From: Armatimonadota bacterium
GTDB taxonomy: Bacteria > Armatimonadota > SYMT01
Direction: 5' to 3'
DNA length: 64,000 nt
NCBI GenBank assembly: GCA_046292385.1
Contig: JBKBRF010000010.1
Coordinates: 64,001 to 128,000, forward strand
Both the position numbers and the translations under genes were made by a program. Below the pieces are notes generated by a model. The model was not told the origin of the DNA, ran no database searches, and saw only the letters and a list, made by a program, of their open reading frames with translations. Shown here in pieces: positions 16,566 to 21,563 of this stretch (the stretch's first letter is position 1; each line of letters starts with the position of its first letter).

Positions 16566-17015
16566 ATGGAACCGGATTACGAGGCGATGCTGCAGGTCGC
16601 CATCGAAGAGGCGCGGCTCGGATTGGCGGAAGGCGGTATCCCGATCGGCGCCGCCCTCTTCAAGGCGGACGGCACCCTGCTCGGCCGGGGCCACAACCGC
16701 CGGGTGCAGGAGGGCGACCCCTCCGTCCACGGCGAGACCGACGCCTTCCGCAAGGCGGGTCGCCAGCGGAGCTACCGGGACAAGATCATGGTCACGACGC
16801 TTGCCCCGTGCTGGTACTGCAGCGGCCTGGTACGGCAGTTCGGCATCGGGACGGTGGTGGTCGGCGAGTCGGTCACCTTCCAGGGCGGGATCGACTGGCT
16901 CCGAGAGCTCGGCGTCCGCGTGATCGACCTCCACTCCGAGGAGTGCGTAAGGATGCTCGGCGACTACATCGCCGCCCACCCCGAGGTCTGGAACGAGGAC
17001 ATCGGAGAGGAGTAG
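16566..17015 (+). CDS. Cytosine/nucleoside deaminase (CDA fold)
   Basis: EGGIPIGA, GHNRRVQ, HGETD, TTLAPCWYC, WNEDIGE. Confidence 0.93.
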   Translation: MEPDYEAMLQVAIEEARLGLAEGGIPIGAALFKADGTLLGRGHNRRVQEGDPSVHGETDAFRKAGRQRSYRDKIMVTTLAPCWYCSGLVRQFGIGTVVVGESVTFQGGIDWLRELGVRVIDLHSEECVRMLGDYIAAHPEVWNEDIGEE

Positions 17016-17027
17016 GGGCCCGAGCCA

Positions 17028-17080
17028 CCGGGCGGTTGAAACCACGGCAACAACAGCACGAAGTCCGCCTTCGCGGACTC
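17028..17080 (-). repeat. REP-like family B copy 2
   Basis: Reverse complement AGTCCGCGAAGGCGGACTTCG..., with a compensatory stem change relative to copy 1. Confidence 0.7.
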
Positions 17081-17268
17081 AGGTGGGCTTGAGTCGGGCG
17101 TCCGGAGGACGCGTGGCCGCAGGCCGACGAGCGAGGTATTTTAATGCCTCGCTCGCCCGCCGGATGCGGAACAGCCCTGCGGCGCACCCGAAGAGCCTCC
17201 CGCCCGGCACGATCTACCGCCAGGCGGTACGGGCCCGCCGCTACGCAATACGCAGCACGGAATACGTC

Positions 17269-18375
17269 CTACTGCACCTGCATCGGCATTACGACCATCA
17301 GGTAGTCCTCGCCGTCGACGGGGCGCACCACGGCGGGGCTCAGCGGCTCGCTCAGCTCCAGGAAGACGCCGTGGCTCTCCACCACACCCAGGACGTCGAG
17401 CAGGTAGTTGACGTTGAACGCGATGGCGATCTCGTCGCCCTCGCGCGCCACCTCTACCTCTTCGTGGGCCCGGCCCAGCTCGCCGTCCGCGGTCACCAGC
17501 AGGCTCTCGCCCTCGGCGGCCACCACCACCCGGTCCTTCGCGGCGGCGGCTCGGGCGACGATGCGCGCGCGGCGGAGCGCCGACTGGAAGTCTTCCCGCT
17601 CCACCGTCAGGCGGCGGGTGTAGCCGGAGGGGATCACCCGCTCGTAGCGGGGGAACTGCCCCTCGATCAGGCGGGAGATCAGGATCATCGTCTCGGTGCG
17701 GAACTGGATCTGGTTCTGGTCTACGCGCACGTGGAGCGGCTTCTCGCCGTCGTCCGCCAGCACCCGCATCAGCTCGTTCATCGCGCGGACCGGGACGATC
17801 ACCGTGGTGTCGCCGCTCGCTTCGGTCACCTTCGCGGTCCGCACCGCCAGCCGGTGGGTATCGGTCGCCGCCAGCCGCAGGGTGCCGTCCTGCACGATGA
17901 AGCAGACGCCAGTGAGGATCGGGCGGGTGTCGTCGTCGGAGGCGGCGAGCGCGGTCTGCCGGATCATGTCCTTCATCAGGGGCTGCGGAAGCTGCAGCGT
18001 CACCGCGCCGCCCACCTCCGGCAGCGCGGGGAAGTCCTCCGCGGTCAGGCCGTGGATCCGGTACTCGGAGCGGAGGCAGCAGATCAGCAGGTTGTCCTGG
18101 TCGTCGCCCGCCAGAGAGACGTCCGCCTCCGGCAGCGCGCCCACGATCTCGCCGATCGTCTTCGCCGGGACGGTCAGGGAGCCGGGCTCCTGCACCCGCG
18201 CGGGCACCAGCACCTCCACTCCCAGCTCCAGGTCGGTCGCGGAGAGCTTGATCGAGTCGGTGCCCGCCTCGATCAAGACGTTCTTCAGCACCGGCAGCGT
18301 GGTGTGGGTGGAGACGGCGCGGCTGACGACCTGCAGTCCTTCGAAGAGATCCTTACGCGGGATCGTGAGCTTCAT
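17269..18375 (-). CDS. dnaN: DNA polymerase III subunit beta (sliding clamp)
   Basis: 368 aa; LPVLKNVLI, LSATDLE, DDTRPILTGV, ATDTHRLA, SRLIEGQFPRYERVIP, IAFNVNYLLD, VVMPM; GGAGG RBS. Confidence 0.97.
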   Translation of the reverse strand: MKLTIPRKDLFEGLQVVSRAVSTHTTLPVLKNVLIEAGTDSIKLSATDLELGVEVLVPARVQEPGSLTVPAKTIGEIVGALPEADVSLAGDDQDNLLICCLRSEYRIHGLTAEDFPALPEVGGAVTLQLPQPLMKDMIRQTALAASDDDTRPILTGVCFIVQDGTLRLAATDTHRLAVRTAKVTEASGDTTVIVPVRAMNELMRVLADDGEKPLHVRVDQNQIQFRTETMILISRLIEGQFPRYERVIPSGYTRRLTVEREDFQSALRRARIVARAAAAKDRVVVAAEGESLLVTADGELGRAHEEVEVAREGDEIAIAFNVNYLLDVLGVVESHGVFLELSEPLSPAVVRPVDGEDYLMVVMPMQVQ

Positions 18376-18447
18376 AATCTAACCTCCGTAGAGTGGATGA
18401 CCGGATGAAGGGGCCCTCGGAGAGGGCGGGGTGTGGGGCAGAAGGGG

Positions 18448-18732
18448 CTATTCCCGGATCCCGAGGACCAGCTGTCCCGGCGCTTCCGGCTCCCGCTCCG
18501 AGAGGTCCAGCTCCCGGCGCAGGTGAGCGAAGGCGGCCTGGAGGAACGCCTCACCGGGCTCGGGCTGCGCCTGGGCGGAGGTGAGGAGCTGGAGCGCCAC
18601 GCGGACCGTCTCCACCTCGTCCCGGCACGCAGAGCACCGCAGGAGGTGACGCTGGATGCGGTCGCAGAGCTCCTCCGGGAGCTCGCCGTCCAGGTAGTTC
18701 CCGGCCAGCGCCTGAATATCCGCGCACTTCAT
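18448..18732 (-). CDS. Soluble zinc-binding anti-sigma factor (zf-HC2) with C-terminal clamp-binding-like motif
   Basis: 94 aa; MKC...YLDGEL...HLLRCSAC (HxxxCxxC); no TM segment; ends PGQLVLGIRE; ATGA overlap with the sigma stop. Confidence 0.88.
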   Translation of the reverse strand: MKCADIQALAGNYLDGELPEELCDRIQRHLLRCSACRDEVETVRVALQLLTSAQAQPEPGEAFLQAAFAHLRRELDLSEREPEAPGQLVLGIRE

Positions 18733-19289
18733 GCCTCGTCCTCCTCGTCCGCGCGCTCCAGGCTCTGAAGCGCGTCCCGCAGCGCCCGGCGGGCCCGCTG
18801 GTGGAGGGAGCGGAAAGCGGTTTCCCCCTTTCCCACCACCTCCGCGGCCTCTCTGGCGGAGAGGCCCTGCACGTCCCGCAGGATCAGCGCCACGCGGTAC
18901 TCCTCCGGCAGCCGGTCCAGCGCCTGCTCCACCAGGATCCGCACGGAAGTGCGGTCCATCTGGTCCGCCGGCGTCAGGAGCGCGGAGGCGTCTCCCACTT
19001 CGTCCAGCGGCAGCGTCAGCACGCGGGGCCGGCGCAGCCGGTCCAGGCACAGGTTCCGGGCAATGCGGAGCAGCCAGGTCTCGAAGCCGCCCTGGAGGTC
19101 CGGCGCGAAGCGGAAGGCGCGCAGGAACGTGTCCGTCACCACCTCTTCCGCTTCTTCCCGGCTCCGGAGCAGCGCGTAGGCGAGTCCGAAGACCCGGTTC
19201 ACGTACCTCCGGAACAGCAGCTCCAGCGCCGCCGCGTCCCCCTGCCGGATCCGCTCGACCCAGTACTCCTCACCACAGCCGGGGATCAT
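18729..19289 (-). CDS. ECF sigma-70 family RNA polymerase sigma factor
   Basis: GDAAALELLFRRY, EAEEVVTDTFLRAF, FETWLLRIARNLCLD, ALDRLPEEYRVALILRDVQGLS. Confidence 0.95.
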   Translation of the reverse strand: MIPGCGEEYWVERIRQGDAAALELLFRRYVNRVFGLAYALLRSREEAEEVVTDTFLRAFRFAPDLQGGFETWLLRIARNLCLDRLRRPRVLTLPLDEVGDASALLTPADQMDRTSVRILVEQALDRLPEEYRVALILRDVQGLSAREAAEVVGKGETAFRSLHQRARRALRDALQSLERADEEDEA

Positions 19290-19313
19290 CGGTCCCCTGC
19301 CCTACACCAGGCC

Positions 19314-19341
19314 AGACGTACGTGGAGCTGGAAATGCATCG
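19314..19341 (-). promoter_or_regulatory. Possible ECF-type autoregulatory promoter
   Basis: GATGCA-N16-CGTC about 25 nt upstream of the sigma ATG. Confidence 0.35.
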
Positions 19342-19491
19342 CGACTTTCGGAGACTCTTTTCCCAGGAGGGAAGCGCCGCCGGAGAGGGGTGCCGGGGGC
19401 GAGGGAATCCTACCCCACCCGAGGGAGACTCGCCAAACGCGGTGGAGGAGGAAGAAGGGGCAACCGGTGCCAGTCCGTTGAGCGGCGGTTT

Positions 19492-19694
19492 CCGAACGAA
19501 CGGGAAGGCGCGAACAAAGGGGAGGACGCGAAGCTCGGATGGGGAAGCGGTGGCCCGCGCGCGAGTGAACTCGGCGCTACACAAAGCGAAGCCCGCCTGC
19601 GCGGGCTGGGAACCCGGTACCCGACGCTCCTCAGTTCCCCGGTCAGGTTCCCTTCGCGTCCTTCGCGTGACTTCGCGCCTTCGCGTTCGTTCGG
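19492..19694. repeat. Inverted pair of ACGCGAAG-type arms enclosing family B copy 3 (19558-19607)
   Basis: CCGAACGAACGGGAAGGCGCGAA at 19492 versus the reverse complement of 19651-19694, CCGAACGAACGCGAAGGCGCGAA. Confidence 0.7.
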
Positions 19695-19710
19695 ATTCGT
19701 CCCCAGCGTG

Positions 19711-20163
19711 CTACTTCGGCCGGGCGAGCTGGAAGGTGCCGACGTACCCCTCGCTGGTATAGAAGCCGAGGAACTCTTTCTCGTTGGCGCGGCCGATCCA
19801 GTCGTAAACGCCGCCGTCCTTCGGGCCGAGGTCGACCGTCCCCTTGAAGAGCACCGCGCCCCCGGCCTGGCGGCCGGCCATCTTGATGCGGTACTTGTAC
19901 GGCTGCCCGGCCTCGCCTTCGAAGGTCGCATCCCACTCGCCTGGCTTCGACTCTTCGACCTTGCAGGTGAGCGGCAGGCGGATCGCGGCTTCGGGGCGCT
20001 TGGGGGCGCCCTCGGGCGCGTAGAGACCCCAGGTGCCGGTCCAGTCGCCGGCGATGGCGGGCGCCTTCGGCTGCGGCTTCTCCTGGCCGAGCCCGTAGGC
20101 GGCGGCTCCGGCCGCGGTGCTCAACGCGACGGCCGCCAGCAAGATCGTTCGACGCATCGTCAT
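19711..20163 (-). CDS. Secreted hypothetical protein
   Basis: Signal peptide; GDWTGTW and beta-rich body; strong RBS. Confidence 0.8.
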   Translation of the reverse strand: MTMRRTILLAAVALSTAAGAAAYGLGQEKPQPKAPAIAGDWTGTWGLYAPEGAPKRPEAAIRLPLTCKVEESKPGEWDATFEGEAGQPYKYRIKMAGRQAGGAVLFKGTVDLGPKDGGVYDWIGRANEKEFLGFYTSEGYVGTFQLARPK

Positions 20164-20294: not shown

Positions 20295-21563
20295 TCAGCG
20301 AGCCTTCACGTCGTAGCAGAGCATGAAGTCCTGGTCGCGCAGGAGCAGCTTGCCGCCGGCGATCACCGGGTGAGCCCAGGCGTTCTTGTTCGACCGCTGC
20401 GGCTCGAAGCGGCCCTTCTCCACATACTGGCTCGGGTTCGCCTCCACCAGCGCCACCGGGCCGCTCTGGCTGCGGCAGTAGAGGTTACCGTCCGCGTAGA
20501 CCACGGAGCCGTTCCCGCCGACGCTGCGGTTCTGCCACTTCGTCTCGCCGGTCTTGAACTCCACACACGTCAGGGTGCCGGGATCGTCGAAGCCGTAGAG
20601 GTATCCGTCGACCAGCACCATGCCGCCGTGCTTGTTCTTCATGTCGCGGGTGAAGTAGACCTCTTCCGCGGAGACCCCATTCGGGGTGCGCGCCAGCTTC
20701 ACCAGCCCGCCCCCCACGTTGTACGCGGCGGCGGCGAAGAGCATGTTGTCCTGGAAGACCGGCGTGGCGATGTTCGCCGTACCGCTGGCCGGGCGGTTGT
20801 AGCGCCAGAGGAAGCGGCCGTCCTCCGCGGCCACGCCCACCACGCCGCCGTGCAGGAACTGGATGTACTGCCGCACGCCGTCCACCTCGGCCGCAATGGC
20901 GGAGGCGTAGTGGGCGGGGTCGCCCTGGGGCACCTGCGACCGCCAGATCACGTTCCCGCTGTTGCGGTCGAGCGCCACCAGGGTCGCCTGCGGGCCGCCC
21001 GGGGTGACGATCACCTTCTGACCGTCGACCAGCGGCGACTCGCTGTAGCCCCAGTTGGGCACCGCGCCGCCGAATTCTCGCACCAGGTTCTTCTGCCAGA
21101 CCGGCTTGCCGTCGGCGGTATTCAGACAGACGACGTCGCCGCTCACCCCGAGGACGTAGAGGCGGTTGCCGACGACGGTGGGAGTGGAGCGAGAGCCTTC
21201 GCCATAGCCGACGTCGTGGTTCGCGGCGGCAATGCGGGTGCTCCAGACCGGCTGCCCGGTGCGCTCGTCCAGCGCCCACACCACCTCGTCATCGCCGCGG
21301 TAGCCCATGCCGTAGATCCGGCCGCCGGCCACCGAGGGGGTCGCGTAGCCGCCGCCGAGACCCTCGGACTTCCAGAGCAGTCGAGGGCCGCCCTGCGGCC
21401 AGCTCTTCAGGAGACCGGTCTCCCGGGAGATCCCGTCGCGGTTGGGGCCGCGCCACTGTGCCCATTCTCCGCCGCGCTCCTGGGCAGAGACGGCGACGGC
21501 GGCGGCGCTGAGGGCCGTGAGCAGAAGGACCCGGCGGGTCAGGGGCGCAGAGCGGAGGGTCAT
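20295..21563 (-). CDS. PQQ-binding-like beta-propeller repeat protein
   Basis: WAQWRGPNRDGIS, WGYSESPLVDG, AWAHPVIAGGKLLLRDQD; export signal. Confidence 0.92.
   Translation of the reverse strand: MTLRSAPLTRRVLLLTALSAAAVAVSAQERGGEWAQWRGPNRDGISRETGLLKSWPQGGPRLLWKSEGLGGGYATPSVAGGRIYGMGYRGDDEVVWALDERTGQPVWSTRIAAANHDVGYGEGSRSTPTVVGNRLYVLGVSGDVVCLNTADGKPVWQKNLVREFGGAVPNWGYSESPLVDGQKVIVTPGGPQATLVALDRNSGNVIWRSQVPQGDPAHYASAIAAEVDGVRQYIQFLHGGVVGVAAEDGRFLWRYNRPASGTANIATPVFQDNMLFAAAAYNVGGGLVKLARTPNGVSAEEVYFTRDMKNKHGGMVLVDGYLYGFDDPGTLTCVEFKTGETKWQNRSVGGNGSVVYADGNLYCRSQSGPVALVEANPSQYVEKGRFEPQRSNKNAWAHPVIAGGKLLLRDQDFMLCYDVKAR

Follow-up and report, generated by a model that had tools for sequence, protein, structure and literature searches.

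To our knowledge, except for the dnaA-dnaN operon, how bacteria control the level of their sliding clamp is little understood. In Escherichia coli the regulatory inactivation of DnaA runs through the Hda pathway, and in the late transcription of phage T4 the clamp gp45 is bound by the sigma-like gp55 and the co-activator gp33 via their C-terminal tails. Passages of a preprint (bioRxiv 10.64898/2026.05.27.728225) describe two clamp-binding motifs, the pentapeptide Q-phi-x-L-F, with the consensus QL[S/D]LF and with positions 1, 4 and 5 as the most important ones, and the hexapeptide Q-phi-x-L-x-L. The same passages give the peptides QLVLGL of Pol IV and QLSLPL of Hda as sub-micromolar binders of the E. 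coli clamp, and the Gly of QLVLGL is described in part of PMC3716654 as letting both Leu enter the clamp pocket. Among sigma factors of the extracytoplasmic function (ECF) type, ShbA of Streptomyces transcribes the principal sigma gene hrdB (part of PMC12019637), and the group ECF14, according to sections of the supplement of PMC7826278, has CTACTGG as its -35 motif and includes an Armatimonadetes subgroup with a zinc anti-sigma at position +1. Here we describe a locus from an Armatimonadota bacterium (assembly GCA_046292385.1) in which the genes of an ECF sigma factor, of a small zinc-finger anti-sigma factor and of the beta sliding clamp (dnaN) follow each other. It is located in a stretch of 64,000 nucleotides of contig JBKBRF010000010.1 (positions 64,001 to 128,000), referred to below as the window.

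A preliminary description of the window, made from its letters, had placed there an ECF sigma gene coupled by an ATGA to an anti-sigma gene, a gap of 72 nt and a complete dnaN, and had proposed that the anti-sigma reads the availability of the clamp and feeds back on its expression. The open reading frames (ORFs) and the Pfam matches put all these parts where they had been placed (Table 1), and the stop of the sigma gene and the start of the anti-sigma gene do share the ATGA overlap. Besides, a terminator scan of 16900-19800 detected none between the three genes, as had been said, and the sole terminator-like site was found after dnaN. That sigma, anti-sigma and dnaN form one unit is well supported. 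We lean, if only slightly, to the view that this is an ECF circuit dedicated to the clamp, in which the operon would be transcribed from the sigma's own promoter and the clamp would be the output and also the probable ligand, bound via the tail of the anti-sigma.

Of 201 genomes of the phylum, 195 yielded a dnaN; 150 loci were listed, and the DNA upstream was read for 147 of them (G011, G083 and G084 were dropped, their contigs ending beside dnaN). Orthologs were called over all ORFs of these loci with jackhmmer, seeded with the sigma and the anti-sigma of the window. A sigma/anti-sigma pair was found directly 5' of dnaN and on the same strand in 35 of the 147 loci, belonging to eight families (Table 2). 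The gap to dnaN was 88 nt or less in 29 of these 35, with a 4-nt overlap in G017; G005 and G044 have long gaps, of 756 and 898 nt. Of the 147 loci, 37 have a DnaA-like ORF 5' of dnaN, and the 35 that carry the module are not among them. Actually, dnaN is often apart from dnaA in this phylum, and in the genome of the window (G000, 7.04 Mb) the two genes are on different contigs.

The promoter provides the evidence on the target of the sigma. In the window it reads CGCGATGCATTTCCAGCTCCACGTACGTC, nearly identical in G005, and its -10-like CGTC ends 25 nt 5' of the sigma ATG. A conserved ECF-type operon promoter, GAC(A/G)CTTTT-N13-CGTC, could be recognized across families. In f12, f13, the genus g20 and one genus of f10 it takes the form GAC(A/G)/GTGCTTTTT-N13-(A)CGTC with identical spacing, in two further g20 loci the motif abuts the sigma ATG, and f29 shows a variant, with CGACAC or CAACAC, at seven of nine loci. 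When the 100 nt preceding the sigma start were inspected, 16 of 33 loci had TTT-N13/14-CGTC, while shuffles predict 0.4. The most informative family was f7, in which the pair and dnaN lie apart (by about 95 kb in G027). By pattern, the motif was found at most 400 nt upstream of dnaN in seven of the eight f7 genomes, and in the eighth (G117) CTACTTTTT-N12-CGTC was seen by eye upstream of dnaN. The sigma gene of f7 has the motif upstream in six of the seven genomes examined, five by regular expression and G076 via a wider upstream region; in the seventh (G144) the upstream stretch, with the start chosen, breaks off within the -35 element (GACACTTTTTGCGG...) and we read the promoter as present. 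In G012, TGTC replaces CGTC in the promoters of both the sigma gene and dnaN. As a control, we checked the dnaN loci of genomes without the linked module, and the motif appeared in one of 104; in G162, the sole match, an anti-sigma orthologue is encoded 1.9 kb upstream of dnaN. The lineage-specific version of the -35 element appears exactly twice in the whole genome of G027 and of G153, once at the sigma gene and once at dnaN. The presence of the promoter upstream of both the sigma gene and the unlinked dnaN of f7, compared with one in 104 controls, indicates that dnaN is the conserved target of this sigma. As a prediction from promoter sequences, dnaN as its conserved and nearly only target is well supported.

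Genome-wide searches with looser patterns were less telling. The degenerate f7 pattern was about as frequent as its reversed control, and the f1 pattern with two mismatches gave 8 matches against 7 of the reversed control in G000, and 13 against 5, a modest excess, in G005. Only the position relative to genes and the lineage-specific -35 element are informative. With its spacer included, the g20 pattern was too strict for defining a regulon, and in four of five genomes it matched the site of the operon and no other. At the linked loci the spacer between anti-sigma and dnaN does not contain the promoter a second time.

Some further observations concern the wiring of these promoters. The exact promoter of the window has two copies in G000, one being that of the operon. 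The second, at C12:81199-81227 (+) (L179:2200-3031), is alike over some 55 nt and precedes the gene of a 211-aa pentapeptide-repeat protein (PF00805, 7.3e-39), beside a phage-type integrase and unannotated ORFs. This copy is probably inside an integrated element, and the pentapeptide-repeat gene may be a second member of the regulon. In the f13 genus g29 (L080, L083) an ECF-type promoter is located between the sigma and the anti-sigma genes, a different wiring that would drive only anti-sigma and dnaN. In g20 (L038-L053) a near-consensus housekeeping promoter, TTGACT-17-TACAAT, stands in tandem about 55 nt upstream of the ECF promoter and is a plausible source of basal dnaN expression.

The sigma protein has Pfam matches to Sigma70_r2 (7.4e-17, residues 25-87) and r4_2 (1.3e-13, residues 119-170) and none to region 3. 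It passes the NCBIfam superfamily model TIGR02937 (83 bits, cut-off 42.9) and none of the NCBIfam equivalogs. With only regions 2 and 4 in 186 aa it belongs to the ECF sigma factors (group 4), and the adjacent cognate anti-sigma and a -35/-10 pair upstream of its own gene, which predicts autoregulation, are those of an ECF sigma as well. Orthologues of different families are 40-50% identical, and a search for related loci with the single sigma protein returned just two distant ECF loci of other phyla (34% and 31% identity). In the same way, the anti-sigma can be assigned to the class I zinc anti-sigmas by its zf-HC2 domain, the residues C3/H29/C33/C36 and a predicted four-helix fold. The AlphaFold2 model, built with 28 relatives, has a mean predicted local distance difference test score (pLDDT) of 83.8, with helices at 3-15, 20-32, 34-53 and 61-75, and this helical part is the predicted sigma-binding domain. 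Residues 76-94 are modelled without secondary structure (pLDDT of 55 and then 47 in the last two ten-residue blocks). There is no hydrophobic span in the protein. Searching a protein atlas gave generic zf-HC2 clusters only, and the family profile of the anti-sigma collected 464 representatives at E <= 1e-10. About half of the best 150 matches to this profile are 260-720 aa long and match the anti-sigma domain at two to four separate places (P0131, P0135, P0138 and others); they appear to be multi-domain or repeated anti-sigma-like proteins.

The C-terminus of the anti-sigma is ...EPEAPGQLVLGIRE and contains QLVLGI. The preliminary description had pointed to this peptide as a flexible tail motif, and to QLVLGL as that of E. 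coli Pol IV; the sequence and the low pLDDT agree with the former, and the available parts of PMC3716654 and bioRxiv 10.64898/2026.05.27.728225 with the latter. QLVLGI fits the published hexapeptide consensus, and in the model it lies in a flexible terminal segment of the exposed type, as for clamp-interacting proteins. We scored tails on a scale with a maximum of 8 built from published clamp-binding determinants (in background ORFs, over the last 32 residues); one point, given when position 5 is P or G, was taken from the examples of Hda and Pol IV and not from the consensus. QLVLGI scores 8 of 8. The full score was reached by 11 of 22 genera of the family and by 5 of 8401 ORFs (>=150 aa) of the window's genome, and a score of at least 7 by 14 of 22 genera and 42 of the 8401, a contrast that makes the tail motif more than chance. 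Among the 149 50%-identity representatives listed there are 71 small proteins (<=145 aa), of which 28 score 8 and 32 at least 7.

Position by position, the 19 genera with a recognizable motif have Q at position 1 in 18 and L at position 4 in 18, with position 3 free, a hydrophobic residue or Arg at position 2, P (14) or G (2) at position 5, and F, I, L or M at position 6 in 16 (Table 2). The Leu of position 4 was invariant in the 28 sequences of alignment A3, where only one other column is; it is L88 of the window protein in the numbering of the alignment tool and residue 90 when counted from the sequence. The linker between the helical domain and the motif varies in length and sequence among orthologues, and the strict literature pattern is found nowhere else in the linked anti-sigma proteins. 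Between 0 and 16 residues follow the motif before the C-terminus, so that a linear docking motif fits better than a C-terminal degron. Mimicry of the SSB tail (an acidic tail ending in IPF) was considered and ruled out, the motif usually not being at the free C-terminus. In the genome of the window, DinB carries QLSLF and an ImuB-like protein QRSLF, indicating that its clamp is served by canonical motifs. As for conservation, the preliminary description had expected the motif in orthologues, and the picture was mixed, with 14 of 22 genera scoring at least 7, the motif absent from most of f29 and the Gln from g20. It had also suggested that conservation might be limited to pairs linked to dnaN, which did not hold in this form: the unlinked f7 orthologues keep the motif and most of the linked f29 have lost it. 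The dnaN of these unlinked f7 genomes carries the sigma's promoter.

Table 1. Features of the sigma/anti-sigma/dnaN locus in window coordinates.
Feature	Position	Strand	Basis or remark
ECF (group 4) sigma, 186 aa	18729-19289	-	Pfam Sigma70_r2 and r4_2
Soluble class I zinc-finger anti-sigma, 94 aa	18448-18732	-	Pfam zf-HC2, 7.8e-11
HxxxCxxC zinc motif (H29/C33/C36)	18625-18648	-	Sequence
C3, likely fourth zinc ligand of the anti-sigma	18724-18726	-	Sequence
Disordered C-terminal tail of the anti-sigma (residues 76-94), acidic/proline linker and motif	18451-18507	-	Low pLDDT
QLVLGI, clamp-binding-like hexapeptide (anti-sigma residues 87-92)	18457-18474	-	Consensus fit
Spacer between anti-sigma and dnaN, 72 nt	18376-18447	-	Without terminator, without second ECF promoter
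Ribosome-binding site GGAGG in the spacer	18383-18387	-	Sequence
dnaN, beta sliding clamp, 368 aa	17269-18375	-	Three Pfam clamp domains
Terminator-like hairpin 3' of dnaN, probable end of the operon	17057-17075	-	Consensus match only
ECF-type operon promoter	19315-19343	-	-35-like GATGCATTT at 19332-19340; -10-like CGTC at 19315-19318

Table 2. Sigma/anti-sigma pairs at dnaN and tail motifs by family.
Family or genus	Pair at dnaN	Tail motif
f1	2/7 (window's genome and G005)	QLVLGI
f7		QWTLPF, QWALPF, QWTLPL, QYLLPF, QRLLPF, QRTLRL, QWPLPI (not adjoining dnaN)
f10	3/3	QYQLPM, QYRLF
f12	1/1	QLVLAS
f13	5/5	QFTLPI, QYALPI, QYSLPI, RYQLPMPF
f15, genus g20	12/13 (contig of the 13th too short)	P(F/L)SLP(L/F)
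f15, two other genera	0/5	
f27	1/8	QRVLPGLL
f29	10/11	
f34	1/1	QPILPM

Some features around the operon and around other dnaN loci are also of note. The dnaN of the window is the sole match in its genome; its product has PF00712, PF02767 and PF02768 and aligns over the full length with solved clamps, e.g. 1mmi_A at 6.8e-54. Just 5' of the operon there is an ORF of 150 aa (19711-20163, -) with a signal-peptide-like start and without Pfam or NCBIfam family, and beyond it a PQQ/BamB-like beta-propeller gene (20295-21563). The 756-nt spacer of G005 (L003/L032) contains two long direct repeats (GGATAAGGATAAAGAG...CCCGTGTAAT.ACAGGTTCCCTGACCA) and short runs of CCTGACCA/CAACCTT repeats, and looks like an insertion of small repeat elements splitting the operon. 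In G001 and G003 (L034, L036), of the same family as the window's genome, the ORF 5' of dnaN is 442-480 aa long with a Pro/Lys-rich end; these two ORFs, of 442 and 480 aa, have no Pfam family and were discarded both as DnaA and as a sigma pair. A joint 17770/18223 in an RNA contig was also discarded, its sides being of 20 letters only and probably from other organisms.

We propose that the circuit would work as follows. The sigma's own promoter would drive the three-gene operon and the sigma would in essence be dedicated to regulating the sliding-clamp gene. The disordered tail of about 19 residues, with Q-(W/Y/F/L)-x-L-P-(F/I/L/M) across the family, would dock in the peptide pocket of the beta clamp, and the inhibitor of the sigma would thus be informed by the product of the sigma's target gene. 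We infer this docking because the motif matches the consensus position by position, lies in a disordered terminal segment and sits on the inhibitor of a sigma that serves the clamp gene. The clamp would then be product and ligand at the same time, the anti-sigma measuring free clamp pockets with a genuine clamp-binding peptide and setting the transcription of dnaN accordingly, an idea that we put forward tentatively and that may well hold, although we stop a little short of calling it probable. When free pockets are plentiful the anti-sigma would hold the sigma, and when they are scarce or occupied, because clamp is in short supply, repair proteins crowd it or blockers fill the pocket, the sigma would be released and more clamp would be made. 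With the opposite sign, DNA-loaded clamps would capture the anti-sigma, coupling the expression of dnaN to replication activity in a manner similar to Hda or to the late transcription of T4. Our preference for the homeostatic sign is a guess. The feedback suggested in the preliminary description is supported in part, namely by the gene order, the tail motif and dnaN as predicted conserved target.

Several data weigh against this proposal, above all against the docking. Hexapeptides bind the Bacillus subtilis clamp 10-20 times more weakly than that of E. coli (in the parts available of bioRxiv 10.64898/2026.05.27.728225), so that their affinity cannot be taken for granted in this phylum. Only 7 of 15 linked genera have the strict literature pattern, which also appears in 31 of the 8401 background ORFs. 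Family f29 (g54, g97, g112) keeps the operon, and most of its members have short tails without a clear motif; f29-type sequences dominate the best 120 clusters at 90% identity, of which 24 match a motif pattern defined post hoc, some f29-type ones carrying Q(Q/H)DLPI. In the 12 genomes of the genus g20 the motif is P(F/L)SLPL and lacks the Gln, which is counted among the most important positions. Besides, the related sequences are kin, and the counts therefore overstate their independence. With regard to the operon, RNA-library contigs of close relatives cover 18620-19284 (the sigma and the start of the anti-sigma) and part of dnaN, and none of them spans the junction of anti-sigma and dnaN, such libraries possibly containing DNA as well; we infer the co-transcription of the three genes of the window. 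Pro at position 5, found in 14 of 19 genera, goes beyond what the clamp consensus needs and could reflect another partner. This leads to a different explanation, in which the sigma controls dnaN and the tail docks on a protease or adaptor, on RNA polymerase or on the sigma itself, its likeness to clamp peptides being convergent. The lack of Gln in g20 and the f29 members that work without motif agree with it, and regulated proteolysis of soluble anti-sigmas is known, e.g. for RseA of Mycobacterium tuberculosis (in sections of the supplement of PMC7826278). On the other hand, the match of conserved and free positions to the clamp motif, the variable distance of the motif to the C-terminus and a sigma whose one conserved target is the clamp gene speak for the clamp, and we regard another partner as rather unlikely.

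The anti-sigma could also be an ordinary zinc/thiol protein similar to RsrA, with oxidative stress freeing the sigma and raising clamp synthesis and with a tail that has no role. The window protein does have all four ligand positions, and it matches the RsrA model weakly; however, the 30.9 bits obtained are well under the cut-off of 62.5, which leaves it outside the RsrA-type redox class. Moreover, HxxxCxxC is absent from the orthologues of f10, f34, f29 (g54 and g97) and two of the four f13 genera (g29 and g38), lineages in which the module, and usually the tail motif, persist. The loss of zinc ligands in several families that keep the tail motif indicates that redox sensing is not the conserved input, and such a sensor would leave the invariant Leu and the conserved Gln of the tail unexplained. 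We consider this explanation improbable. We regard it as very improbable that there is no functional link at all, the gene order being historical and the clamp-peptide likeness of the tail a matter of chance. The order is indeed found in just 35 of 147 loci, and five of the seven genomes of the window's own family are without it. Against this stand the promoter of the sigma gene found also at the unlinked dnaN of f7, with its near absence from the controls, and the enrichment of the motif over the background by orders of magnitude.

A full-text search of the literature found no paper linking an anti-sigma or an ECF sigma to a clamp-binding motif, the sliding clamp or DnaN, and the main text of the ECF re-classification paper leaves DnaN, the sliding clamp and replication unmentioned. 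The passages of the supplement of PMC7826278 on ECF14 name no dnaN neighbour and no tail motif, an existing mention elsewhere in the supplement being possible, and the only replication-related mention in the sections consulted is that of the DNA polymerase III delta subunit as a neighbour of ECF30. A sigma with dnaN as its only conserved target would be a new route of control for an essential replication protein. If the docking is true, it would make this anti-sigma the first one known with the clamp as its signal, and with a built-in response to whatever occupies the pocket, such as crowding repair proteins, clamp-targeting antibiotics, toxins or phage proteins. It would also be a compact and portable sensor of clamp-pocket occupancy, and a possible reporter for pocket-targeting compounds.

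Among known systems, pairs of the SigR-RsrA type are similar in that the gene after that of the ECF sigma encodes a small soluble HxxxCxxC anti-sigma, and in autoregulation. They differ in the RsrA signature discussed above, and the -35 element found here, GAC(A/G)CTTTT, is unlike that of ECF14. ShbA, as far as the consulted part of its description goes, is also an ECF sigma that governs an essential housekeeping gene, but with another target and another input, and no feedback of the product through an anti-sigma is described there. Hda resembles the anti-sigma in being a non-polymerase regulator with a terminal hexapeptide that has Pro at position 5, and in using the clamp as a signal of the replication state. 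Unlike the anti-sigma, it is an AAA+ protein acting on DnaA with its motif at the N-terminus, whereas here the motif is C-terminal and the predicted output is the transcription of dnaN. The peptide of E. coli Pol IV (DinB) differs from that of the window in the last residue only; yet the anti-sigma lacks any catalytic part, whereas Pol IV is a DNA-recruited enzyme, and the DinB of this genome uses a different peptide. In the late transcription of T4 a sliding clamp contacts the sigma apparatus via short terminal peptides and transcription is coupled to replication, but that clamp belongs to a phage and acts as a DNA-tracking activator, while here a cellular beta clamp, a peptide on an anti-sigma and the clamp's own gene as target would be involved. 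If this is true, the locus would be a cellular counterpart of the clamp-coupled transcription of T4. ECF pairs and clamp-binding peptides are each known, and what is new here is their combination with the clamp gene as dedicated target.

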